From NCBI GenBank assembly GCA_965228485.1, contig OZ245819.1, positions 1,230,001 to 1,262,000 on the forward strand: a stretch of 32,000 nucleotides of DNA. The letters run 5' to 3'. How positions within the stretch are numbered: the first letter of the stretch is position 1; each line of letters begins with the position of its first letter. The notes under the pieces were generated by a model. It saw only the letters and a list, made by a program, of their open reading frames with translations, was not told the DNA's origin and searched no databases. Origin of the DNA: Candidatus Saccharimonadota bacterium (GTDB lineage: Bacteria; Patescibacteriota; Gracilibacteria; UBA4473). This document shows positions 8,355 to 24,133 of this stretch, piece by piece. The position numbers and the translations under genes were made by a program.

Positions 8355-9038
8355 TCAATGTTTTTTATCTGATTTATCCTGACATTGAGATCGTCTCCAG
8401 GCTTCGATTTTAGCATGGTGTCCTGAAAGAAGGATTTCTGGAACTTTGAGTCCTCTAAATTCTTCTGGTCGAGTGTAGTGTGGATATTCTGTGCAGTCTC
8501 GTCCAAGGGTTTCTGAAAAACTCTCTTCTTGGTGACTTTCTTCTTTTCCAATGACTCCTGGGAGAAGTCTGGCAACGGCATCAACAAATACTTGTGCGGG
8601 TAATTCACCACCGGTTAGCACAAAATTTCCAAGAGATAATTCTTGATCTATTAGAACATCCCTCACTCTTTGATCAATGCCTTCATAGTGTCCACATAAA
8701 AGAATTATACGAGTGTAGGTTTGATTTTGGGAAAATTGTTCAGCAATTTTTTGGTTAAAAGTTTGACCATGAGGCGTTAAAAATATGACTGGAGCATTAT
8801 CTGTTTTAAGACTTTTTACATGTTCGATACAATCAAATAATGGCTGACAAGACATAACCATCCCTGCCCCACCGCCATAAGGTATATCGTCTACTTTATT
8901 GTGTTTATCTTCTGAAAAATCACGTATATCAAAAGTATTGATTTCAATTTTTTTATTTTCTACGGCTCGACCGATAATGGAGGTTTGCTTGAAACTTTCA
9001 AAAGCCTCTGGAAATAGTGTTAAAATATCAAATCTCAT
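8355..9038 (-). CDS. trmD: tRNA (guanine37-N1)-methyltransferase
   Basis: MRFDILTLFPE...DIPYGGGAGMVM...LLCGHYEGIDQRV...SLGNFVLTGGELPA...LLSGHHAKIEAWR is the canonical TrmD pattern. Confidence 0.95.
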   Translation of the reverse strand: MRFDILTLFPEAFESFKQTSIIGRAVENKKIEINTFDIRDFSEDKHNKVDDIPYGGGAGMVMSCQPLFDCIEHVKSLKTDNAPVIFLTPHGQTFNQKIAEQFSQNQTYTRIILLCGHYEGIDQRVRDVLIDQELSLGNFVLTGGELPAQVFVDAVARLLPGVIGKEESHQEESFSETLGRDCTEYPHYTRPEEFRGLKVPEILLSGHHAKIEAWRRSQCQDKSDKKH

Positions 9039-9699
9039 GGTTTGATTTTATAGCTTTATTACAAAAGTCAACGAGTCCTTGGGTACTTTGGAAATAAGCG
9101 TGAATTTTTTTGTGAACGTTTTTCTGGTCATAAAATTCATCTGGAATATTTTTCACAACAATAAAACTTTTGAATTTTAGGTAATCAATGCCTGGGTGAT
9201 TTTTATCATAACCTCGTGGAGGGTTGGTGAGTTTTATTGGTTCTAAGACTCCAAAATGTTTCTTAAGGGAGGGGGCATTGATGATTTTTTCAAAATCAGG
9301 ATATTTTTTATCAAGAACAGATCTAATAGCTTTGATTTTTTCACTTTCGGGCATATAAATCCCTGCTGCAATAAAAGAATTTCCTGGTTCTAAATGCAGA
9401 TAATATCCAGCATTTCCTGTACTTTTACCTCCAGGAACAAAGAACGCTCCAAAATTTGTCTTGTAGGGTTGTTTGTTTTTACTAAATCGAATATCTCGGT
9501 TAATTCGATAAATACATTTTCTGGGATCTAGGTGGATGAATTCTTGATCTAGTAAAACTAAGTGATCGAGCGTTTCCTGGACGAAGTCAATCCATAATTT
9601 TCTAGCAGTTTGGTATTCTTTTTTGTGTTCGTCAAACCAAGATTTTTTGTTATGTTTTTTTAGTTTTAATAAGAAGTCGTAGATAGATTTAATTTCCAT
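9028..9699 (-). CDS. DUF2461 (TIGR02453-like) family protein
   Basis: N-terminal FLLKLKKHNKKSWFDEHKKEYQ...RINRDIRFSKNKQPYKTNFGA...YYLHLEPG matches my memory of the DUF2461 family. It overlaps both neighbouring genes by 11 nt. Confidence 0.7.
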   Translation of the reverse strand: MEIKSIYDFLLKLKKHNKKSWFDEHKKEYQTARKLWIDFVQETLDHLVLLDQEFIHLDPRKCIYRINRDIRFSKNKQPYKTNFGAFFVPGGKSTGNAGYYLHLEPGNSFIAAGIYMPESEKIKAIRSVLDKKYPDFEKIINAPSLKKHFGVLEPIKLTNPPRGYDKNHPGIDYLKFKSFIVVKNIPDEFYDQKNVHKKIHAYFQSTQGLVDFCNKAIKSNHEI

Positions 9700-10486
9700 T
9701 TATTAAGGCATTAATAGCTGATTCTTTTCCAGCTTCGTACATAGTTTTTAGATTTTTGTTTCCGAGTGTGATCGACGAAAAATCTTCAAGATCTGGAGTT
9801 AACAAGATTACTCTATCATCTTTGGGAAAATGTTTTTGTTGATTTTGATAGATGATTCGAAAACTTCTTTGTACTACAGCAAATAAGTCTTGGCTTACCC
9901 CAAAGAATTTTTGAGTTCCAAAATCTTTTGGCAGGGGAGGAATGGTGGCGACATCAATTCCGACGATAGTTGATCCTTGGTAGTTCTGGATCATGTAATC
10001 TAGTGGGAAATTCTGAGAGAGAAATCCATCAGCTAAATGTCGCTTATAAACAGGGTGGAAAAATGGCTCAAATACTAGTGGAATGGCTAGAGAACTTCGA
10101 ACGGCATCGGCTATTTTTCCTTCTGTAATCAGTATTTGTTCTCCTGTGGCGAAATCAGTGGTTCCAATGGTTAATGGGATATCAAGGTCTTTAAAAGTTT
10201 TACCTTCATAAATTTCATCTAATAACTCATAGATTTTTTTTCCTTGAACGAGCCCTGTGTTGTTTAGTGAAAAGTCAAAAGCGAGATTAAATAGATTTGT
10301 ATTTTGAATAATTTTCCAAATTTCTTTGTGATTTTTCCCAAGGGCTATACCGGCTCCAACGATAGCGCCTGCCGATACTCCGCAGATAGCATCAAATTCA
10401 TATTTTTTTTCTAATATTTCTAGGCATCCTACATGAGCTATTCCTAGAGCGCCGCCTCCCGAAAGTACGAGTGCAGATTTATGCAT
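9689..10486 (-). CDS. Patatin-like phospholipase
   Basis: Oxyanion motif LSGGGALGIAHVG, nucleophile elbow GVSAGA (GxSxG), and a later DG(F) Asp dyad motif. Confidence 0.85.
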   Translation of the reverse strand: MHKSALVLSGGGALGIAHVGCLEILEKKYEFDAICGVSAGAIVGAGIALGKNHKEIWKIIQNTNLFNLAFDFSLNNTGLVQGKKIYELLDEIYEGKTFKDLDIPLTIGTTDFATGEQILITEGKIADAVRSSLAIPLVFEPFFHPVYKRHLADGFLSQNFPLDYMIQNYQGSTIVGIDVATIPPLPKDFGTQKFFGVSQDLFAVVQRSFRIIYQNQQKHFPKDDRVILLTPDLEDFSSITLGNKNLKTMYEAGKESAINALINGN

Positions 10487-10548
10487 CGTTATTTATTTTA
10501 TGTATTTCAAATTGGTTCGAAAGTTCTTTTTTCATATACTCATGTTCG

Positions 10549-12258
10549 ATGAAGACAATTTTCGTTCCTGGCTCTAAATCAATTACTAATAGAGTTTTGT
10601 TGCTTGCGGCCATTTCTGATAAACCGGTGGTTTTAAAGGGAGTTTTGGATTCGGATGATGCTCGTTATATGCAAGAAGCTTTGAAGACTTTTGGAGTGAA
10701 AATTGAATACTTGGGTAAAAATACATTGAAAGTTTATCCTGCTGAAGCCTTGAAGGCCAATGGTCAGGAAATATTTATTGGTAATGCTGGGACGGCTGCG
10801 AGATTTTTATCAGCTTTATCTTTGGTAGTGGAGGGACGTTATACTCTAACGGGAATAGAAAGAATGCAGGAAAGGCCTCAAGAAGACTTGATGAAGGCTC
10901 TGGAAGATTTGGGGGTAGGAATTGAATGTCATAAGAATGAAGGTTATTTACCAGCGAGTTTTTTGTCGAAAGAGGATATTGGAAGTGTGGTGAAGATTTC
11001 AGGAAAGGTTTCTTCTCAATTTTTATCGGGACTAATGTTGGTAGCGTCTCGCCTGGTAAAAGGTTTGACCATAGAGGTAGTAGATGGAATTCCTAGTCGT
11101 CCCTATATTGAGATGACTTTATCTATATTAAAAATTTGGGGTGTTAGATATAAAGTTAATAATGATTTTTCTCAGTTTGTGATTCATTCTGGGATTACAG
11201 CCCCTGAAGAATATCTTATCCCATCAGATATGAGTTCGGCAAGCTATCCTTTGCTCTGGTCGGTGCTTAGTGGAGAATCGATTTCTATTGAAAACTTTGG
11301 TTCACAGACATTGCAGGGAGACGAGCAGTTTTTAGAAGTCATAAAAACCGTAGGCGCTCAGGTGGAACGCAAAGGGGATCGATGTGTGGTTCAGCCTCCT
11401 GAAGAGCTTTTGCCCATGGGAGATTGGAATTGGGAATCGATGCCAGATGTAAGTATGACCGGGATGGTTCTAGCGGCTTTTTGTCCTGGTAAATCCAAAT
11501 TTACAGGTCTCGAAAGTTTAAGAGTTAAAGAGTGTGACCGAATTGTTGCTATGGAGCAATTGGCTGAAATTGGCGTATCGATAAAAGTGGATAAAGATGA
11601 GGTTGTAATTGAGGGACATGAATATCTGAAGCACATTAAATATGAAGCGCCTTTAGAAATAGATAGTTTTGATGATCATCGTATTGCAATGTGTTTTGGA
11701 GTGCTGAAGGCAGCACTTGATTGGGGATCCGATCCTTATCAGGAATCAGTTATTCGAATCCTAGAACCAGAATGCGTAGCTAAAACCTGGCCTAAATTCT
11801 GGCTTGAACTATCTGATTGGGAAGATCAGCTTAGGCCTGTTAGTGCGTTGGTTTTACACCGAATAGGAAGTAATTGTGGGAAAGATAAATATCTTATTGT
11901 TAAAAAACCAAGAAAAAATCACGCTTGGCAGTTTCCTCAGGGAGGTCAAGATGAGGGAGAAACGGCAAAACAAGCGGCTATCAGAGAATTACAGGAGGAG
12001 TGTGGAGAAACTTTGAATGCAAAAATAAAAGGAGAAAGACCTGTGGGAGAATATAAATATTTTTTCCCTTCAGATTTTGATCGTCATGATGACCGTATTG
12101 TTGGGGCGAAGGTTTCTTTTTTTCTCGCAGAGTTTATTAGTGGATCGGTAGAAGTAGATGGTAATGAAATCATCGACCATAAATGGGTAACCCTGGAAGA
12201 ATTTTCTGAATATTTTGAAGGTGAGTATCTAGAAGTTGTACAGGATTTTTTTGCCTAG
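10549..12258 (+). CDS. aroA: 3-phosphoshikimate 1-carboxyvinyltransferase (EPSP synthase) fused to a C-terminal Nudix hydrolase domain
   Basis: AroA motifs PGSKSITNRVLLLAA, GNAGTAARFL, KECDRIVAM and DDHRIAMCF. From about nt 11830 there is a Nudix fold with the box GGQDEGETAKQAAIRELQEECGE (about 11941-12010). The track start is a GTG at 10471 that overlaps the patatin gene. The ATG at 10549 (MKTIFVPGSK) is preferred. Confidence 0.85.
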   Translation: MKTIFVPGSKSITNRVLLLAAISDKPVVLKGVLDSDDARYMQEALKTFGVKIEYLGKNTLKVYPAEALKANGQEIFIGNAGTAARFLSALSLVVEGRYTLTGIERMQERPQEDLMKALEDLGVGIECHKNEGYLPASFLSKEDIGSVVKISGKVSSQFLSGLMLVASRLVKGLTIEVVDGIPSRPYIEMTLSILKIWGVRYKVNNDFSQFVIHSGITAPEEYLIPSDMSSASYPLLWSVLSGESISIENFGSQTLQGDEQFLEVIKTVGAQVERKGDRCVVQPPEELLPMGDWNWESMPDVSMTGMVLAAFCPGKSKFTGLESLRVKECDRIVAMEQLAEIGVSIKVDKDEVVIEGHEYLKHIKYEAPLEIDSFDDHRIAMCFGVLKAALDWGSDPYQESVIRILEPECVAKTWPKFWLELSDWEDQLRPVSALVLHRIGSNCGKDKYLIVKKPRKNHAWQFPQGGQDEGETAKQAAIRELQEECGETLNAKIKGERPVGEYKYFFPSDFDRHDDRIVGAKVSFFLAEFISGSVEVDGNEIIDHKWVTLEEFSEYFEGEYLEVVQDFFA

Positions 12259-14846: not shown

Positions 14847-15284
14847 TTAGTGTCCTGTCGACCCAAATCCACCTCTAGAGTCTTTTCCTAAAAAGTCTTT
14901 TTCGACTTCGATAAATTCTACGTTTTGAGTTTGGACGAAAAGTCCTTGTGCTACTCTTTCACCTCTTTCGATATTTATTGCTTCGTTGCCAAAGTTGATT
15001 ACTTGAATAAGAATTTCATCTTCAGGCCCACAATAATCTTGGTCAATAAGTCCGATTGAATGAGGAAACATAAGGCCTTTTTTCCTGTAGGTAGAACTTC
15101 TAGGGAGAATTAGTAAGGCTAAATTTTTTGGGCATTTAATAATAGTATTGCTAGGAATGAATCCTACTTCTTTTGGGGCAATGGTTATATTTTCTCGAGC
15201 AAGAAAATCAAACCCAAAACTTCCTTCGGTTTCATACTTTGGTAACTCCAAGTCTTTGTCTATACGATGAATTTCAACTTTCAT
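14847..15284 (-). CDS. dut: dUTP diphosphatase
   Basis: Motifs GFDF, PRSS, GLIDQDYCGP and the C-terminal SRGGFGSTGH. Confidence 0.9.
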   Translation of the reverse strand: MKVEIHRIDKDLELPKYETEGSFGFDFLARENITIAPKEVGFIPSNTIIKCPKNLALLILPRSSTYRKKGLMFPHSIGLIDQDYCGPEDEILIQVINFGNEAINIERGERVAQGLFVQTQNVEFIEVEKDFLGKDSRGGFGSTGH

Positions 15285-15366
15285 TGTATTTATTCTAAGT
15301 CGATTCTTTTATAAAGTCGATGGAATCTTGGGGTGATTAATTGAGTTTGTTTTTTAAATTTATACC

Positions 15367-16914
15367 ATGTACCTGATGAAGAAATCATTTGTGTTATTCG
15401 GTTTATTATGTGCAGGATTGGTTTTTGCCCAGGACGTGCCAGAAGAAGATGTAAGCCAGGAGCCGTTACCAGCCTCAGTAGAGGAATTAGATGAAGGGCA
15501 AATTGAACCAGTTATCATTGCTCCAGACAATATTAGCTTTGGAAGTGAGGCTATCTTTGATGCCAGTAGTTCCAAAATTATTTCGATATCTAATTACGGA
15601 AACCCTAGTTATTCATGGGATTTTGGTGATGACCAAGGAATTCAGTTTGGAGAGAAAGTCAAATATACTTTCACGGCTCCAGGATATTATGAAATTAGAC
15701 TTAATGTTCGTCAGGGACAGCAGAAAGAATCTATTAAAAAACAAGTTTTAGTTTATACTCGGCAATCGACTCTTATTGCGGATTCTTCTGGAGAACAAAT
15801 TTCAGCCGTTAAAGAAGAAGCGGCAAAAAAAGGTATTTGGCTCCAAGAGATTACGGTTCCGAACGATTCGAGTGATCTATCGACAGAAGATGTTTTTATT
15901 CAAAAATTCCAAGAAAACTTTGATGATTTAGAAGCTTCTGAAGTGATTATTTTTTATTCTAGTTCTTCTCGGGGTATTCAATCATTTGCTCAGTTTTGGA
16001 AGCGGTTGTCTCCGGAAGTGCGTTTTGATCTGACTAAAAAGTTGGTAGTTCAGATTTCTGAAGATTCTCTGGATCGTATCGCGAAGAGAACTCAACCAGT
16101 TTTTGAGATTCTTAGACCAGAATATATTTTGTTAACCAGGCCAGAGGCCATTAGCGTTATTTTTAATCAGAAAAAATTAGACCGAGTCCTTCCAAGCCTT
16201 GGAAGTAGGGCGATTGAATACCAAAGAGTTGATGCAAAAAGTCGAGTACCGATTTGGTTGCCATTTAGTCGTTTGTTGAGTTTCTTTTCTTCTCAAGGAC
16301 TTTCTCAGACTATTATTTATATTTTGCTTTCAGTGCCATTTGTCACTTTTGTTATTGCTTTCTTTAGGCAATTTGTGGGAGTTTCTACATTTGGAGTATT
16401 TGCTCCATTAATGCTTGCTTTGGCATTTTTGGTTTTAGGATTAAATTTCGGATTAATAGTGTTCTTGATGGTAATGTTGGTGAGTTATCTTATTCGAACT
16501 TTGTTTAATCGTGTGGAGTTGCTTTATATTCCGAAAGTTGCGCTTTTATTAAGTTGTCTGGCTTTGTCCTTTTTCCTTGTGTTGGGGCTGGCTGTATATT
16601 TCAGGGTTTCGCTAGACCTTTCGTTAGCAATTTTCCCAATGATGATGATGTCGACTATTTCGGAGAAGTTTTTGTCTTCTCAGTCCTCAGAGGGGATTAA
16701 GAGCGCGATTATTGCTGCCGTTGAAACTGTTTTGGTGTCTTTAATTGCTTACGCTTTAGTAGACTGGGATTTGGTGAAAGATAATATTTTGGCCATTCCC
16801 GAACTGATTCTTCTACCAATCATGGGGACTGTTTGGTTGGGACGATTTACAGGTTTGAGAGTTTCTGAATATATTAAGTTTCGAAGTTTATTACGTGAAG
16901 ATAGCCAAGAATAA
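15367..16914 (+). CDS. Secreted PKD-like domain plus 7TM membrane protein (related to the 7TM module normally fused to an inactive transglutaminase)
   Basis: Signal peptide KKSFVLFGLLCAGLVFAQD, then an acidic linker. The PKD-like signature is YSWDFGDD...KYTFTAPGYYEIRLNV (about 15517-15740). About 7 hydrophobic helices fill the last ~220 aa. Its stop overlaps the next ATG (TAATG). An alternative ATG lies at 15376. Confidence 0.8.
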   Translation: MYLMKKSFVLFGLLCAGLVFAQDVPEEDVSQEPLPASVEELDEGQIEPVIIAPDNISFGSEAIFDASSSKIISISNYGNPSYSWDFGDDQGIQFGEKVKYTFTAPGYYEIRLNVRQGQQKESIKKQVLVYTRQSTLIADSSGEQISAVKEEAAKKGIWLQEITVPNDSSDLSTEDVFIQKFQENFDDLEASEVIIFYSSSSRGIQSFAQFWKRLSPEVRFDLTKKLVVQISEDSLDRIAKRTQPVFEILRPEYILLTRPEAISVIFNQKKLDRVLPSLGSRAIEYQRVDAKSRVPIWLPFSRLLSFFSSQGLSQTIIYILLSVPFVTFVIAFFRQFVGVSTFGVFAPLMLALAFLVLGLNFGLIVFLMVMLVSYLIRTLFNRVELLYIPKVALLLSCLALSFFLVLGLAVYFRVSLDLSLAIFPMMMMSTISEKFLSSQSSEGIKSAIIAAVETVLVSLIAYALVDWDLVKDNILAIPELILLPIMGTVWLGRFTGLRVSEYIKFRSLLREDSQE

Positions 16915-19229
16915 TGATTTTTTCTACTAAGCGATCGGATATTCTTGGAATGAATGCGCGAAATTTACTTTATATTTCGCGGTTCAATTCTGCGGCAAAT
17001 AAAAAATTTGCAGATGATAAAATCTTTACAAAGCAGTTTCTAGAATCTCGTGGGGTTGGAGTGGCGAGGCTTTATCAGGTGGTAAAAAATCAACGCCAGT
17101 TAACGCATGATTTTTTTGAAAGCTTGCCCGACAGTTTTGTAATTAAGCCCAATAGAGGCTTTGCAGGAGCTGGGATTGTGGTGATTTCTCATAAAAAAGG
17201 AAATAAGTGGGTTACGGTTTCTGGTAAAAAATTGGATGAAGAATCTCTTTACTTGCAGTGTATTGATATCTTAGAGGGGAAATACTCTATTTCAGGGACT
17301 CATGATGATGTTATTTTTGAAGAAACATTAGCCCCTCATCCAGATTTTCGATTACTTACAAACATCGGACTTCCTGATGTTCGAGTGATTGTTTTTAACA
17401 TGGTGCCTGTAATGGCCATGCTTCGAGTTCCAACAGCAGAGTCTGATGGGAAAGCTAATATGGAGCTAGGAGCTATCGCAATGGGGATTGATATTGGTTC
17501 CGGTTTGACTACTGGAGCAGCTAAAAAATCAAAGTTTATCCGCAAAATGCCCAATGGAGAAAGTACAGAAGGATTTCTCATTCCATACTGGGATGATATT
17601 TTGTATGCAGTTTCCAAAATTCAGCAGGTTACTAAAATAGGTTTTTTGGGTGTTGATTTGGTAGTGACCAATACGGGAGTAAAAGTATTAGAAGTTAATG
17701 CTCGTCCAGGATTAAAAATCCAGGTAGCCAATCAAATTCCATTACAAAAAAGATTAGATAAAGTAGCTGATCTTAAAGTCCTAACTCCTGAAGAAGGAGT
17801 TGATGTTGCTAAGACTCTCTTTGCAGAAAAATCTGTATATGAAGCCAGTTTTATTCCTAAGCCAATTCTTGGAATGAAAGAGAATGTGCTTTTAAATTCA
17901 GATCCACCACAGAGTTTGGTAGCGCGTATGGCGCTTAATGAAGAACAGAATTTTATTAATAAGGAATTCTATGATGCAGATGAAAAAGTCTTGGATATTA
18001 CGATTGAAGGGAAACGATTAAAACTTCCAATTGAAAAAAGTAAAAAGAAACTAGATGATTGTGATTTAATCTTGGCTGGAAAATTTTTGAGTGATTTTTA
18101 TATCGACCCAAATAAACCTTTTGAAGAGGTTAACTTGGCGGCTGTTTCAACTCAGTCTGTAGATGAACGAATGCTGCGAAATCTTGATAATAAGATTGCT
18201 GAGATGGATTCTCAGATTAAGCTTTTATCTTATATTAATCCGCGAAATATTTCGGAGCAGAAGGCTGTCTTTTTGAGTAATCCAGAATTTTCACCTCGTT
18301 TCTATTATAAAGATTTGGATTTAGATTTCTCTTTGATGCGTCATGATCTTAAAAAACTTCCAGAGGTAAATCATGCGCTTTATCCACTCTATAAAAAGAA
18401 AATAGAAGAACTTGATTTTAAGCTTGCGATGCTTGAAGCTCGAAGTACAGATGATTTTTCTGGTTTTAGTGAGAAAGTATTTGGTCGAGTGACAAGACAT
18501 TTGTATCAGGAGGCTTTGAAATTCCTCAAGTCTCATGAAGGGAAGGTTCAACCTGATGAAAGCGAGGAATTGGACACTCGGAAAACAACAGAGATTTTGA
18601 AAGATTTCCTAAAGTCCCACAACCTTGGGCATTGGCAGATTAAGCTCGTAGATGATTCAGTAGCCGATATTCAGGTAACAAAACGTGATGCCATTCTTTT
18701 AAAGAAAGGTGCTAAATTTAGAAGAAATCGTTTAAAAGCTCTGCTGGTTCATGAAATTGGAACGCATGTATTTAGATATGAAAATGGGAAATTACAGCCA
18801 TTAAGGATTTTGGAGCGAGGAACGGCTGGATATCTTCGGACAGAAGAAGGTTTAGCGGTTTGGAATCAAAATCAATTAGGATTAGATTTAGGAGATAAAT
18901 TCTTAACCCCTGCTTACCAAATTGTCGCTTTATACGTGGCTCAGCGAATGGGATTTCAGGACCTCTTTCACTACTTGAAAGGGACTTTTGATATGCCTGA
19001 TGACTTGGCGTGGAAACTTTGTCTTAAAGCCAAAAGAGGGTTTGAGGATTCTAGTGTGAGGGGAGCTTTCACGAAAGACGCAATCTATTTTATGGGAGCT
19101 CGAGACATTGATCGATTTTTAGCTAAAGATGGAGATATTACCGATCTTTATGTTGGGAAAATTTCGATAGATGATCTTCCATTGGTTCAAAAAATAGAGG
19201 GATTAAGAGACCCTAAGTTTTTATTGTAA
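16914..19229 (+). CDS. Fusion protein: RimK-related ATP-grasp amidoligase (alpha-L-glutamate ligase-like) plus an HExxxH/EEGLA DUF1704 (MATCAP-like) carboxypeptidase domain
   Basis: N-terminal GMNARNLLYISRFN...DDKIFTKQFL...IKPNRGFAGAGI...GVDLV...VLEVNARPGL is the ATP-grasp part. The C-terminal part starts near nt 18156 with INPRN...NPEFSPRFYY, HEIGTH (18750-18767) and TEEGLAVW (18840-18863). Confidence 0.85.
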   Translation: MIFSTKRSDILGMNARNLLYISRFNSAANKKFADDKIFTKQFLESRGVGVARLYQVVKNQRQLTHDFFESLPDSFVIKPNRGFAGAGIVVISHKKGNKWVTVSGKKLDEESLYLQCIDILEGKYSISGTHDDVIFEETLAPHPDFRLLTNIGLPDVRVIVFNMVPVMAMLRVPTAESDGKANMELGAIAMGIDIGSGLTTGAAKKSKFIRKMPNGESTEGFLIPYWDDILYAVSKIQQVTKIGFLGVDLVVTNTGVKVLEVNARPGLKIQVANQIPLQKRLDKVADLKVLTPEEGVDVAKTLFAEKSVYEASFIPKPILGMKENVLLNSDPPQSLVARMALNEEQNFINKEFYDADEKVLDITIEGKRLKLPIEKSKKKLDDCDLILAGKFLSDFYIDPNKPFEEVNLAAVSTQSVDERMLRNLDNKIAEMDSQIKLLSYINPRNISEQKAVFLSNPEFSPRFYYKDLDLDFSLMRHDLKKLPEVNHALYPLYKKKIEELDFKLAMLEARSTDDFSGFSEKVFGRVTRHLYQEALKFLKSHEGKVQPDESEELDTRKTTEILKDFLKSHNLGHWQIKLVDDSVADIQVTKRDAILLKKGAKFRRNRLKALLVHEIGTHVFRYENGKLQPLRILERGTAGYLRTEEGLAVWNQNQLGLDLGDKFLTPAYQIVALYVAQRMGFQDLFHYLKGTFDMPDDLAWKLCLKAKRGFEDSSVRGAFTKDAIYFMGARDIDRFLAKDGDITDLYVGKISIDDLPLVQKIEGLRDPKFLL

Positions 19230-20912
19230 TTACATCTTTGCTGGAATCTCTATCCCGAGGATTTTGAGTCCTGTTTCGAGTACGTCTAGTACTTTTGAAG
19301 CGAGGATAATTCTTGCATTTCTTAGCTTTACAGTATCAGCATTAAGTACGGAGTTGTCGGCATAAAAACTCGACCAAGTTTGAGCGAGTTCTAGTAGGTA
19401 GGTGACAATGTAGGTTGGGTTTTTTGTGTTAACAGCCTTATTTAAAATTTCTGGCCATTCCATGATTTTTACTCCCAGTGGTTTTTCTGCTTCTCCTAGG
19501 ACATTAAAATCAACGGTTTGTTCTATGTTATTAGCTTTTTCTAGGATAGATTTAATTCGAACACCTGCATACTGTAGATACGGTCCAGTAGCTCCGTGAA
19601 AGTCGATAGATTTTTCGGCATCAAAAGTAATATCTTTATTGGGAGAAGTTCTGAGTAGGAAAAACTTCCAGGCAGCATTTTGAACTTTTTCAGCTATTTC
19701 ATGAATAGTATTTTCAGCAAATTCTGGTTTTGTTTCTTGGATTTTTTTCCTGACTAATTCATGAAGTTCATCCATCAAATTATCCGCATCAACGACGGTT
19801 CCTTCTCGGGATTTCATTCGTCCATCGGGAAGGTTTACGAGACCGTAATTTAGATGATAGCATTTATTAGCTTCCATAATGCCAAGTCTGTCCAGACACT
19901 CAAATAAGACTTGGAAATGATAGTTTTGTTCACTGGCAGTTGTGTAGATGAGACTATCTGGGTGATTGAAATCTTTGTCTCGATTTACGGCGACAGCCAA
20001 ATCTTGAGTTAGATAGACAGAAGTTCCATCAGATCGAAGAATTACCTTTTGGCCAAGTTGTTCGTCTTCAAAATTTATGACAATAGCTCCATCATCTCGA
20101 GTTTCAAAAACACCTCTTTTGAGACCTTCTTGGGCAATATTTTTTCCTTCTAAATAATAATCAGATTCTTTATAACTTTTCTCGAATTTTATACCTTGCC
20201 TGTCATAGGTTTTTTGGTGTCCATCCAAAGTCCAATCGTTCATTTTTTTCCAGGTTTCTCGAACCTCAATATCTCCGGCCTCCCATTTTTGGAGCATGGT
20301 TTGTACTTCAGTATTAAGTTCTTCGTTGTTTTTTGATTCTTGATCAAATTTTACATAGTAACGCCCAACAAGCGCATCACTTTTTTCTCCCGTGTCTTCT
20401 GGAGTTTCTCCATTCCCAAATTGTTGATAGGCGAGTATGGATTTACAGATATGTACCCCTCGGTCATTAATAATATTCACTCGGTGAACTTTTGCCCCAG
20501 CCGCTTCCAGTAGATTTGAAACAGAAAGGCCTAGGGCATGATTTCTCATATGTCCAAGGTGCAGAGGTTTATTGGTATTTGGTCCAGAAAACTCAATAAC
20601 AATTTCCTGATTTTTCAGTAATTTACTTCTTAGCGAAACATTTGTTACGGCACTAAAAAAAGCTTCATTACTGAAATATAGATTTAGGTAGGGACCAGCA
20701 ATTTCAGTTTTTTCTACGAGTTCAAAGTTTTCTAATATTTTTTCTACTTCCTGAGCAATTTCAACAGGAGATTTTTTCAGTTTTTTTGTAAGAGCAAAGA
20801 ATTGCATCGCTAAATCTCCAGACTGCCCTTTTGGAACGGCTGAGAATTGGATCTTTTGTGCGGAATCTTTGTTCCAGTTTTTTTCGAGAAATTGTTGTAC
20901 TTGCTTCTGCAT
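19230..20912 (-). CDS. argS: Arginine--tRNA ligase
   Basis: HIGH-type motif PNTNKPLHLGHMRN, overall class I ArgRS layout, and a C-terminal anticodon-binding DALR-like helical region. Confidence 0.95.
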   Translation of the reverse strand: MQKQVQQFLEKNWNKDSAQKIQFSAVPKGQSGDLAMQFFALTKKLKKSPVEIAQEVEKILENFELVEKTEIAGPYLNLYFSNEAFFSAVTNVSLRSKLLKNQEIVIEFSGPNTNKPLHLGHMRNHALGLSVSNLLEAAGAKVHRVNIINDRGVHICKSILAYQQFGNGETPEDTGEKSDALVGRYYVKFDQESKNNEELNTEVQTMLQKWEAGDIEVRETWKKMNDWTLDGHQKTYDRQGIKFEKSYKESDYYLEGKNIAQEGLKRGVFETRDDGAIVINFEDEQLGQKVILRSDGTSVYLTQDLAVAVNRDKDFNHPDSLIYTTASEQNYHFQVLFECLDRLGIMEANKCYHLNYGLVNLPDGRMKSREGTVVDADNLMDELHELVRKKIQETKPEFAENTIHEIAEKVQNAAWKFFLLRTSPNKDITFDAEKSIDFHGATGPYLQYAGVRIKSILEKANNIEQTVDFNVLGEAEKPLGVKIMEWPEILNKAVNTKNPTYIVTYLLELAQTWSSFYADNSVLNADTVKLRNARIILASKVLDVLETGLKILGIEIPAKM

Positions 20913-22191: not shown

Positions 22192-22821
22192 TTACTTTTT
22201 GGTTTCTACTAAAGTTTTTGAGCCAAAGAAAATAAGCATAATACCAATGACTTGCTCAAGGCATTTCATCCGATTTTGAAGGAATATTTGTACTTGCTGA
22301 ACGCTAAATATTTTGGTTATAAAAGCTAAGTAAATCATTGTATTTAGTGGAAGTAAAATACAGATGATTATCTTTATATTTAAAGGTGTTGTTGGAGGAA
22401 GAACAATAGCAAAAATACTTACAAATGCCATAATCGGTTCTATATTAAAAAGATTAGCAATAGCCCCCATTTGGAATGCTTTTTTGGGATGAATCATTTT
22501 TTTTGTTTTTTTACTTTTTTGAGATTTAAGATTTTTAGCATTTCGAAAAAAACTTCCTCCAAGATATATGAGATAGAGGGCTCCAATAGTTTTTATTCCT
22601 GCTAAGAGGTTTGGATTTTGGCTGATGATGATACTTAGGCCTGTCATCGCGAGAAGACAGTGTAAGAAGGTAATAAATCCAATTCCTAAAACGGTAAAAT
22701 AACCTATATGAATAGAATATTTTAGAGTGTTTCTTGTGACAATAGCAAAGTCTTGTCCTGGGGTAATAATTGATAAAAAATCGATGATGGCGATGGTGAG
22801 AACTAGAGAGAGAGTTGACAT
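22192..22821 (-). CDS. LysE/RhtB-family amino-acid exporter
   Basis: About 6 TM helices and the N-terminal FLSIITPGQDF motif region typical of LysE/ArgO-type exporters. The track start is a TTG at 22857 inside argH. The ATG at 22821 sits 1 nt after the argH stop. Confidence 0.75.
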   Translation of the reverse strand: MSTLSLVLTIAIIDFLSIITPGQDFAIVTRNTLKYSIHIGYFTVLGIGFITFLHCLLAMTGLSIIISQNPNLLAGIKTIGALYLIYLGGSFFRNAKNLKSQKSKKTKKMIHPKKAFQMGAIANLFNIEPIMAFVSIFAIVLPPTTPLNIKIIICILLPLNTMIYLAFITKIFSVQQVQIFLQNRMKCLEQVIGIMLIFFGSKTLVETKK

Positions 22822-22822
22822 G

Positions 22823-24133
22823 TTATAGTTGGTTAAGCTTGTTTCTGAGTTTTTCAAGTCCGAGATTTCCCGTAGCTCCTAAGTGTGTTTTTGATTTTAG
22901 GTTTTTAAAAATTTCTTCTTTGGTCACTGGTTCTGTTTTAAGTTCTTCTAATTCTTCTTTTACCTTTAGATAGGCTTCTCTAAAAGGCATCCCTTGTGCG
23001 ACAAGATTATTGGCCTTATCTGCGGCAAAGATTGTTGGGTCAAAGGCTTCTATGAGTCTCGATTCATTTGGAGTGATGTTGTCGATTAGCGCTTGGCTAA
23101 TTTGGAGCATGTTTTGGACAGTTTTAATACTTTCCATAGTTGGTTCTTTTGAAAGCTGTAAATCTCTGTGATACCCCGAAATTAAATTTGTAGTAAGATG
23201 TTTTAATGTGCTTTCATAACCCAAGATTTTAGCGTGTGAAGCCCTTAGAAGTTCGGCTGGATCTAGATTTTTCTTTTGTGGCATGATGGAGGACCCTGTA
23301 GTAAGCTCATCCTTAACGGTGAAAAACTGGAATTGAGAACTTGTGTACAAAACAAGATCATTGGCGAAGAGTGCGAGTGTTGAGCTGAGGTTACTGAGGT
23401 GGCTGACTAGATCAGCTTCAATTTTTCCTCTGGTATTTTGTGAAGTGAGGCTGATAGTTAGACAGTCATCAAACCCTAGCTTTCTTGCGGTTTCTTCTCT
23501 TGGAAGATCGAAATCAACTCCGAATCCAGCCGCCGAACCCAAGGGGCAAAGGTTAAAATTATTTCTAAAATTTATTAGTTCTTGAAGATTGAGAATGGAC
23601 ATTTCTGCAAAACTTCCAGCCCACATTCCAGCACTTGAAGGCATGGCTACTTGGGTATGAGTAAATCCAGGCATGGGCATGAATTCGTATTTATTAGAAA
23701 AGTTTAAAAATAGTTGAGCTAAATTTTTTGTTGAATAAATAATTTGATCAATATTTTCTCTTTGCCAAAGTCTTGTGGAGACTAGGACTTGGTCATTTCT
23801 AGATCTTCCAGTATGAATTTTTTTACCTATTTCTCCCAGCTCTTTAACGAGATATTCTTCAATAGCGGTATGACCATCTTCTTGTGATTTTTGAATTTCA
23901 AATTTTTGGTTTTGATGTAGTTCTAAGATTTCGAGTAATACAGTTTTAATCTTTTTCAATTCGTTAGGATTTAAAATCCCAATTTTTTGAAGCCCTTCCG
24001 CGTGAGCGATTGAAGCTTGAATGTCATAGGGAATTAATTCTGAATCAAGAATATAGTCATTTCCTACCGTAAAATCTTCGATGAGTTGAGTTAGGTTGGA
24101 ATGATGGTTGGAGTCGGTTTGCCAGAGTTTCAT
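22823..24133 (-). CDS. argH: Argininosuccinate lyase
   Basis: Fumarate-lyase signature GSSIMPQKKNLDPAELLR, TGRSRNDQV and HTQVAMPSS. Confidence 0.95.
   Translation of the reverse strand: MKLWQTDSNHHSNLTQLIEDFTVGNDYILDSELIPYDIQASIAHAEGLQKIGILNPNELKKIKTVLLEILELHQNQKFEIQKSQEDGHTAIEEYLVKELGEIGKKIHTGRSRNDQVLVSTRLWQRENIDQIIYSTKNLAQLFLNFSNKYEFMPMPGFTHTQVAMPSSAGMWAGSFAEMSILNLQELINFRNNFNLCPLGSAAGFGVDFDLPREETARKLGFDDCLTISLTSQNTRGKIEADLVSHLSNLSSTLALFANDLVLYTSSQFQFFTVKDELTTGSSIMPQKKNLDPAELLRASHAKILGYESTLKHLTTNLISGYHRDLQLSKEPTMESIKTVQNMLQISQALIDNITPNESRLIEAFDPTIFAADKANNLVAQGMPFREAYLKVKEELEELKTEPVTKEEIFKNLKSKTHLGATGNLGLEKLRNKLNQL

Follow-up and report, generated by a model that had tools for sequence, protein, structure and literature searches.

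The window considered here is a stretch of 32,000 nucleotides (nt) of contig OZ245819.1, from a genome named Candidatus Saccharimonadota bacterium, of an uncultured Patescibacteria lineage, and the subject is a pair of overlapping open reading frames (ORFs) encoded in it. ORF1 encodes a predicted membrane protein related to RloB, and ORF2 a cytoplasmic enzyme that carries an ATP-grasp ligase, a putative degenerate retropepsin and a MATCAP-type zinc carboxypeptidase on a single chain. These two genes almost certainly form a functional module, best read as a Patescibacteria variant of the RloABC and RimK-RimB kind. It is not unique to this window and is undescribed in the literature searched, as queries with TIGR02291, PF14397 and PF14402 and with MATCAP plus ATP-grasp found no description of the Patescibacteria fusion. 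What this analysis adds is the recognition of a degenerate retropepsin hidden in ORF2 and of an ectodomain that is not a transglutaminase, together with the wide and tight linkage of the two genes and the invariant glutamate (Glu) at the C-terminus of the partner protein.

The Pseudomonas RloABC operon encodes a secreted retropepsin (RloA), a seven-transmembrane (7TM) protein carrying a transglutaminase domain that is inactive (RloB) and a cytoplasmic ATP-grasp protein, RloC (mBio 2025, PMC12239564). Genetic phenotypes of this operon include tolerance of hypo-osmotic conditions, resistance to antibiotics and the formation of biofilms. Deleting rloB or rloC suppresses the effect of losing the three RloA proteases, and the substrate is not known (PMC12239564). 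A preliminary description of the DNA studied here had stated that modules of this type have no experimentally defined function, which holds for the biochemical substrate and has to be amended for the genetics, given the RloABC phenotypes. Also in Pseudomonas, RimK adds Glu to the C-terminus of S6, and RimB, a retropepsin-like peptidase, takes it off (PMC12239564). Human MATCAP/TMCP enzymes remove the C-terminal Tyr of tubulin tails and also shorten the glutamate chains on them (PMC10499314).

The features of the locus are given below with the evidence for each in brackets (aa, amino acids; HMM, hidden Markov model; AF2, AlphaFold2).

15367 to 16914, plus strand: ORF1, RloB-like membrane partner, 515 aa (ORF list, HMMs, homologues)
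15367 to 15429, plus strand: signal peptide of ORF1, approximately aa 1-21, ending ...LVFA/QD (sequence; hydrophobic segment aa 8-24; A21 nearly invariant)
15514 to 15729, plus strand: PKD (Ig-like) ectodomain of ORF1, aa 50-121, with a WDFGD motif (Pfam)
15748 to 16266, plus strand: second ectodomain of ORF1, approximately aa 128-300, predicted alpha/beta three-layer fold, Rossmann/flavodoxin-like (AF2, Foldseek)
16303 to 16890, plus strand: 7TM block of ORF1 (PF14402), aa 313-508 (Pfam, hydropathy, alignment)
16837 to 16911, plus strand: cytoplasmic C-terminal tail of ORF1, aa 491-515, GRFTGLRVSEYIKFRSLLREDSQE (homologue C-termini)
16912 to 16916, plus strand: TAATG stop/start overlap of ORF1 and ORF2 (sequence)
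16914 to 19229, plus strand: ORF2, cytoplasmic three-domain enzyme, 771 aa, without signal peptide (ORF list, HMMs, homologues)
16929 to 17825, plus strand: RloC-like ATP-grasp ligase domain of ORF2, aa 6-304 (TIGR02291, PF14397)
17655 to 17657, 17691 to 17693 and 17697 to 17699, plus strand: Mg/ATP ligands D248, E260 and N262 of the ligase, which also has the ATP lysine K78 (alignment)
17859 to 18128, plus strand: putative degenerate retropepsin-like domain of ORF2 (RimB/RloA, PF05618 type), approximately aa 316-405 (AF2, Foldseek, profile search)
18186 to 19196, plus strand: MATCAP/DUF1704 (TIGR02421 'QEGLA') zinc carboxypeptidase domain of ORF2, aa 425-761 (HMMs, alignment)
18750 to 18767 and 18840 to 18857, plus strand: the motifs HEIGTH, aa 613-618, and TEEGLA, aa 643-648 (alignment to human MATCAP)
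15285 to 15366, no strand: divergent intergenic region between dut and ORF1, 82 nt, presumed promoter site (ORF coordinates)

ORF1 ends in GAA-TAA (16909-16914) and the last A of this TAA (16912-16914) is the first base of the ORF2 ATG (16914-16916). The ORF pair, its TAATG overlap, the divergent region beside dut and the abutting argS gene were all found as given in the preliminary description.

The assignment of the ORF2 N-terminus to a TIGR02291-type ATP-grasp, proposed there from a sequence pattern, was borne out by two models: PF14397 (ATPgrasp_ST) matched aa 16-284 with an E-value (E) of 4.2e-56 and 190.6 bits (Pfam cut-off 31.4), and TIGR02291, the best NCBIfam match, covered aa 6-304 over the full domain length with 234.7 bits, under its curated cut-off of 314.2. 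The RimK family model TIGR00768 scored 42.7 bits, under its cut-off of 143.4. In a direct HMM alignment D248, E260 and N262 of ORF2 coincided with the same-numbered residues of Escherichia coli RimK, which are known as its Mg ligands from structural work on RimK, and these three residues together with K78 were invariant in the 14 ORF2 homologues (44-77% identity) used for the active sites. The Mg/ATP ligands, the possible loss of which had been raised beforehand, are therefore kept. A search of PDB sequences with the full-length ORF2 profile, run to an E of 0.1, retrieved no structure of an ATP-grasp.

The same search matched human MATCAP with an E of 5.5e-21. PF08014 (MATCAP) was detected at aa 458-761 (E 4.9e-47, 161.1 bits, cut-off 27) and TIGR02421 at aa 425-761 with 172.4 bits, under its cut-off of 338.65, the motif being TEEGLA and not QEGLA. 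The covalent union of the ligase with a DUF1704-type metallopeptidase, as first read from the sequence, is supported by both scores. HEIGTH and TEEGLA correspond residue for residue to human MATCAP (7z5g), of which the E-to-Q mutant chain in 7z6s reads HQIGTH, and H613, E614, H618, E644 and E645 were invariant in the 14 ORF2 homologues. Judging from these conserved residues, both catalytic activities, ligase and peptidase, are probably real.

The segment that links the two enzymes (approximately aa 316-405) is conserved among homologues and by eye resembles RimB-type proteins (G..E.V.L / AKID / LAGKFL.DF.IDP). Single-sequence Pfam scans of six linker sequences at E up to 10 yielded no PF05618 match, and the linker profile gave chance matches only when run against PDB sequences. 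The AF2 model of this domain had a core pLDDT (predicted local distance difference test) of approximately 96, and Foldseek placed the DUF785 protein Lpg0085 (2pma) first (E 8e-5), followed by RloA2 of P. aeruginosa (9g59) and RloA of P. fluorescens (9g58) with E of approximately 1e-4, and then by Ddi1 and retroviral proteases; the template-modeling (TM) score was approximately 0.55 for 2pma, 9g59 and 9g58. When searched against 1.84 billion representatives, the profile of the domain recovered fusion proteins together with standalone proteins of 110-165 aa (E 2e-7 to 7e-4), and the latter pass the Pfam models of PF05618 and related retropepsins. The motifs G..E.V and LIG..L..F.IDP align between the linker domain and these PF05618 proteins, and AKIDTGA of the standalone proteins falls on ARMALNE of the window, so that the catalytic D-T-G is replaced by A340-L341-N342. 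Alignment of the linker with the PF05618 type in hhalign was weak (E 1.2e-3, probability 19%) and in the same register. Of the 118 rows in the alignment of fusion homologues, some of them duplicates, 99 have D at the place of the catalytic Asp, followed mostly by L/P and then H, and D-T/S-G is retained in no row. By profile and model, then, the ORF2 linker is a catalytically degenerate retropepsin domain, the window copy lacking even the Asp, and with this predicted domain all three Rlo components are represented in the module. Two kinds of matches to the linker profile were discarded: those of intermediate length are fragments of the fusion protein, and a protein of 1698 aa with Big_3_5 Ig-repeats (P0370), in which five stretches matched with E 4e-11, is likely a beta-rich repeat artefact.

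ORF1 has a signal peptide, followed by a PKD domain and, at the C-terminus, a block of about seven helices, as noted in the preliminary description and confirmed by Pfam (PKD_4, PF14402) and hydropathy. PKD_4 (PF18911) matched aa 50-121 with E 1.7e-10 and 41.2 bits (cut-off 27) and PKD (PF00801) with E 2.1e-6 and 28.1 bits (cut-off 23.5); the domain also resembles weakly the PKD domains of the collagenase ColH. Strands and helices alternate in the AF2 model of aa 125-312 (mean pLDDT 91.5), for which Foldseek against PDB returned generic alpha/beta (Rossmann/flavodoxin-like) matches only, with TM scores of 0.3-0.5. By Pfam, ORF1 lacks PF14400, the inactive transglutaminase, which scores 153-201 bits in the RloB proteins of Aeromonas and a Legionella plasmid taken as controls. 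The second ectodomain is thus, as modelled, a Rossmann-like alpha/beta fold and not a transglutaminase. That proteobacteria pair this ATP-grasp family with a 7TM protein bearing an inactive transglutaminase had been stated correctly, as seen in the operons of the same Legionella plasmid (L082) and Aeromonas (L083).

The membrane core belongs to 7TM_transglut (PF14402; aa 313-508, E 2.4e-29, 103 bits, cut-off 25), and the full-length RloB model NF052267 reached 61.7 bits, against a cut-off of 900, matching the C-terminal 7TM part alone. A hydropathy scan combined with K/R counts of the loops indicated a signal peptide, an ectodomain on the outside and seven helices, with the N-terminus out and the C-terminus in. 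Invariant residues of the core (R334, G338, G343, P347, R377, F423-P424-M425, E433, G443, G492, G496, R498, E501 and F505) are common to ORF1, the Aeromonas and Legionella RloB proteins and an unannotated ORF of 584 aa from the plasmid CP007061.1 of Halobacterium sp. DL1 (L084, 4179-5933), in which a PF14402 core is joined to a PF14397 ATP-grasp. These comparisons show that the ORF1 membrane core is homologous to RloB and that a predicted PKD plus Rossmann-like ectodomain takes the place of the inactive transglutaminase. The Halobacterium fusion is independent support for a physical interaction of the ligase with the C-terminal face that the 7TM protein turns to the cytoplasm; it also places the 7TM/ATP-grasp family in an archaeon. 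Concerning the start of ORF1, there are in-frame ATGs at M1 and M4 (15367-15378), and because homologues begin with MKK and M4 is nearly invariant, the alignment suggests that the real start is probably the ATG at 15376, correcting 15367.

A scan with one genome per species detected the fusion protein in 342 or more genomes at species level, which all seem to be Patescibacteria. The best 120 fusion matches all carry PF14397 and PF08014, with the exception of a truncated entry (P0114), and the source names of the relatives are 'DUF1704 domain-containing protein', 'tyrosine/phenylalanine carboxypeptidase domain-containing protein' and 'alpha-L-glutamate ligase-like protein/TIGR02421 family'. Linkage was inspected in 80 loci out of the 342 relatives, labelled Gracilibacteria/Altimarinota, Peribacteria, Peregrinibacteria, Magasanikbacteria, Uhrbacteria, Kerfeldbacteria and Parcubacteria. 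At 72 of these 80 loci the gene immediately upstream, in the same orientation, codes for a full-length homologue of ORF1 (34-64% identity) that has the PKD, the alpha/beta and the 7TM regions, mostly with a gap of 2-12 nt, and two further loci are cut off at their upstream end. Chance adjacency of the two genes is rejected by this conservation, which also answers the question of neighbourhood conservation that the preliminary description had left to be checked. The same source had considered the module 're-wired' here. PKD indeed stands in the place of transglutaminase and the ligase is indeed fused to MATCAP, but this arrangement is the standard form in Patescibacteria and not specific to the window. 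No further gene accompanies the pair consistently across the 80 loci, dut, tilS and argS being neighbours only in close relatives. Twelve metagenome-assembled genomes (MAGs) with the module are titled 'uncultured Gammaproteobacteria bacterium' (L034, L037, L041, L043, L045, L049, L051, L052, L057, L060, L065 and L076); one of their fusion proteins (L052) shares 97.7% identity with its counterpart from a Magasanikbacteria MAG (L059), and these labels are for that reason doubtful.

ORF1 ends in the cytoplasmic tail peptide KFRSLLREDSQE, which reaches E515. Among 176 distinct full-length ORF1 homologues Glu is the last residue in 175, and 112 end in EE; the terminal Glu runs comprise one to five residues, and the last eight positions hold approximately 3.5 acidic residues. 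In canonical RloB proteins, a set of 115 that are mutually more alike than the Patescibacteria ORF1 set, Glu is last in only one, the last residues being K (34), S (31), D (18) and others. An invariant terminal Glu is accordingly not general among the PF14402 proteins compared and is invariant only in the fusion-linked subfamily. The ORF1 end (...REDSQE) resembles the acceptor tail of RimK, E. coli S6 (...GDSEE).

From these data it can be proposed, with even confidence for and against, that the module, with its two translationally coupled genes, is the form taken in Patescibacteria, or candidate phyla radiation (CPR) bacteria, by RloABC/RimK-RimB, with the C-termini of peptides as its targets on the cytoplasmic side of the membrane. 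The ATP-grasp domain would add residues (by analogy with RimK most likely alpha-linked Glu) onto a C-terminal carboxylate, and the MATCAP domain would trim the added residues, having taken over the role of eraser from the dead retropepsin, which may persist as a scaffold for tail binding or oligomerisation. The leading acceptor candidate would be the acidic cytoplasmic tail of ORF1 with its invariant terminal Glu, and the length of this tail could tune or report the state of a 7TM protein with ectodomains turned towards the environment or the host. The steps of this proposal differ in their standing. Addition and trimming of C-terminal tails on some peptide or protein is, from the domain content, an evenly balanced proposition; an add-and-remove cycle is plausible, the intact state of both active sites in the alignments being what is shown. 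The ORF1 tail is the most economical substrate because it belongs to the only other conserved component, is cytoplasmic and has an invariant Glu only in the fusion-linked subfamily, and yet we regard it tentatively, as a rather unlikely single answer. The complete scheme of a self-contained writer, eraser and substrate, in which ORF2 extends and trims the Glu tail of ORF1, the length of that tail gating or reporting the state of the membrane protein, is held to be unlikely as a whole.

Several observations weigh against this proposal. ORF2 scores under the equivalog cut-offs of both TIGR02291 (234.7 vs 314.2 bits) and TIGR02421 (172.4 vs 338.65 bits), for which reason function cannot simply be transferred to it, and amino-acid specificity is not readable from the sequence. 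Rather than opposing each other, a ligase and a peptidase of a single chain could just as well act one after the other in a pathway. The fusion gene occurs without an adjacent ORF1 in 6 of the 80 loci; in one of these genomes an ORF1 homologue lies approximately 95 kb away on the same contig. The Halobacterium fusion has no free 7TM C-terminus and the tails of canonical RloB proteins are basic, so that self-tail modification can be neither ancestral nor general for the wider family. Finally, the Pseudomonas protease is periplasmic, which suggests that something crosses or spans the membrane there, a feature that the tail model does not need (PMC12239564).

The terminal Glu could also have a meaning other than that of a modification site, serving as a docking or stability signal or arising as a by-product of the downstream ribosome-binding site, and this is deemed possible although somewhat unlikely. 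The acidic motif could simply bind the retropepsin-like or the ligase domain, and in most loci purine-rich GAA/GAG codons lie close 5' of the ORF2 start. The ribosome-binding explanation is largely rejected, since the terminal Glu is retained in all 13 loci with ORF1-ORF2 gaps of 40-433 nt and in the unlinked ORF1 copy approximately 95 kb from the fusion gene, and since its codon is GAA in 58 cases and the more Shine-Dalgarno-like GAG in 11; the residue thus appears independent of the ribosome-binding region of ORF2. A different product altogether is envisaged if the ATP-grasp makes a free peptide or polymer (e.g., poly-alpha-glutamate or a short oligopeptide) that is exported via the 7TM protein, MATCAP setting the chain length or making primers and the PKD and alpha/beta ectodomains handling the product at the surface. 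Such synthesis has a precedent in RimK, which also makes free poly-alpha-L-glutamate, and the rescue of RloA loss by rloB or rloC deletion fits a product of RloC and RloB outside the cytoplasm (PMC12239564). The invariant charged or polar residues R334, R377 and E433 are as expected of a conduit, and no precursor-peptide gene fits beside the module (82 nt upstream, 0 nt downstream). Export is nevertheless considered doubtful: both peptidase-type domains are cytoplasmic here and fused to the ligase, no secreted retropepsin or other protease gene is conserved near the module among the 80 loci, the invariant Glu of ORF1 is left unexplained and a transport role of PF14402 proteins is unsupported.

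Instead of ORF1, an unlinked cytoplasmic protein might receive the tail (e.g., S6, as in RimK/RimB, S6-like C-termini having been put forward in the preliminary description), with ORF1 as only a membrane anchor or a sensor that regulates ORF2. ORF2 has the same pairing of ATP-grasp and retropepsin-like domains as RimK-RimB and is sometimes encoded apart from ORF1; on the other hand, its 234.7 bits with the RloC-type model against 42.7 with the RimK family model, the tight operon with a membrane protein and the covalent fusion in Halobacterium point to action at the membrane, and this explanation appears improbable. Still less probable is sequential salvage or biosynthesis of a small molecule, in which the carboxypeptidase and then the ligase would act on an imported peptide, muropeptide or glutathione-like compound, the 7TM protein being importer or sensor. 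CPR bacteria depend on scavenging, which favors it, as does the metabolite-like context of a MATCAP/QEGLA gene on alphaproteobacterial plasmids, for example pAA02 of Aminobacter aminovorans (L085, 4451-8195), located between genes for an N-formylglutamate amidohydrolase and a glutathione-synthetase-like ATP-grasp protein. The ATP-grasp of that context is from a different subfamily, however, no metabolic neighbours are conserved at the 80 loci, and the retropepsin-like domain and the RloC/RimK affinities of ORF2 point to peptide or protein tails. A reading as a defence system was also considered and rejected, as PADLOC gave no meaningful match.

Turning back to the tail-modification proposal, its interest lies in the fact that the RloBC family has no known substrate, although in Pseudomonas it bears on the tolerance of antibiotics, the formation of biofilms and osmotic survival. 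The minimal two-gene form is kept in hundreds of species with genomes of approximately 1.3 Mb, on which grounds an important role at the envelope or host interface is argued. If true, the self-tail model would provide a counterpart, in prokaryotes and bound to the membrane, to the tubulin tail code and the first biochemical handle on the whole RloBC family. The bacterial setting of a MATCAP domain fused to an ATP-grasp is also relevant to the origin of the tubulin tyrosination/glutamylation cycle of eukaryotes.

With regard to the surroundings of the module, ORF1 and the dUTPase gene (14847-15284, minus strand) point away from each other across the 82 nt, and argS (19230-20912, minus strand) converges on ORF2 with a spacer of 0 nt. 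The stop codons of ORF2 and argS abut (19227-19232), so that a terminator would not fit between them; a hairpin resembling one, at 19300-19316, sits within argS. A scan of the locus for promoters and terminators gave match counts at chance level. G+C is even over the window (0.33-0.41), with no sign of a foreign island. Some Gracilibacteria/Altimarinota, the labels borne by the closest relatives, recode UGA; here TGA ends 4 of the 26 long ORFs of the window (including 8355-9699), and judging from these stops the organism therefore appears to use the standard genetic code in spite of the labels of its relatives. Within the ATP-grasp region an antisense ORF of 93 aa (17336-17617, minus strand) recurs in 57 loci and is most simply the shadow of a strongly conserved sense frame, not a gene. 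Elsewhere in the window, an EPSP synthase (AroA) is fused in a single ORF (10471-12258, plus strand) to a C-terminal NUDIX hydrolase domain; its product, 570 aa from 10546, matches PF00275 at aa 4-420 and PF00293 at aa 446-561. An argininosuccinate-lyase-like ORF (22823-24133, minus strand) and a LysE-type translocator ORF (22192-22857, minus strand) have 35 nt in common (22823-22857), and the start of the latter probably lies further downstream than listed.

Compared with known systems, the module has in common with RloABC the TIGR02291/PF14397 ATP-grasp subfamily, a homologous PF14402 core with shared invariant residues, the position of the 7TM gene directly upstream of the ligase gene and the presence of a retropepsin-fold component. 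It differs from RloB in the ORF1 ectodomain, which is PKD plus Rossmann-like instead of an inactive transglutaminase, and in a tail that ends in invariant Glu. RloA is separate and secreted, whereas the retropepsin-like unit is internal to the cytoplasmic ORF2, lacks a signal peptide and has lost D-T-G; moreover, ORF2 adds a MATCAP-type metallocarboxypeptidase domain, and the hosts are Patescibacteria and not Proteobacteria. With RimK-RimB the module shares a cytoplasmic ATP-grasp accompanied by a PF05618-type domain, conserved Mg ligands and, as proposed here, a writer/eraser logic on a C-terminal tail ending in Glu. Unlike RimK, ORF2 falls outside the RimK family by HMM (42.7 bits vs 143.4), and in contrast to RimK-RimB the retropepsin is degenerate, the eraser is probably the zinc carboxypeptidase and a membrane partner is present. 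One peptidase class has apparently replaced another within a conserved system.

The enzymes of tubulin tails (TTL/TTLL and MATCAP/TMCP) offer a further parallel, as the PF08014 peptidase is homologous and has the same HExxxH...E site, and in both cases an ATP-grasp ligase would oppose a peptidase on acidic C-terminal tails, this being proposed by analogy for the module. Here the ligase and the peptidase are on one chain, the ATP-grasp is of the RloC and not of the TTL type, tubulin is absent, and the module is prokaryotic and linked to the membrane. Association of a MATCAP-family peptidase with an ATP-grasp ligase is also seen at the genomic level in the QEGLA proteins of pAA02, where the genes are separate, the ATP-grasp is of another subfamily and there is neither a 7TM partner nor a retropepsin-like domain; the pairing of peptidase and ligase thus recurs with other partners. 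The pAA02 protein itself has 622 aa, with an N-terminal extension of approximately 270 aa to which no domain is assigned. The Halobacterium protein, in turn, lacks the ectodomain, the MATCAP domain and a free 7TM C-terminus of the module, and resembles it in coupling the 7TM_transglut and ATPgrasp_ST families directly, in this case within one chain, as a Rosetta-stone fusion.

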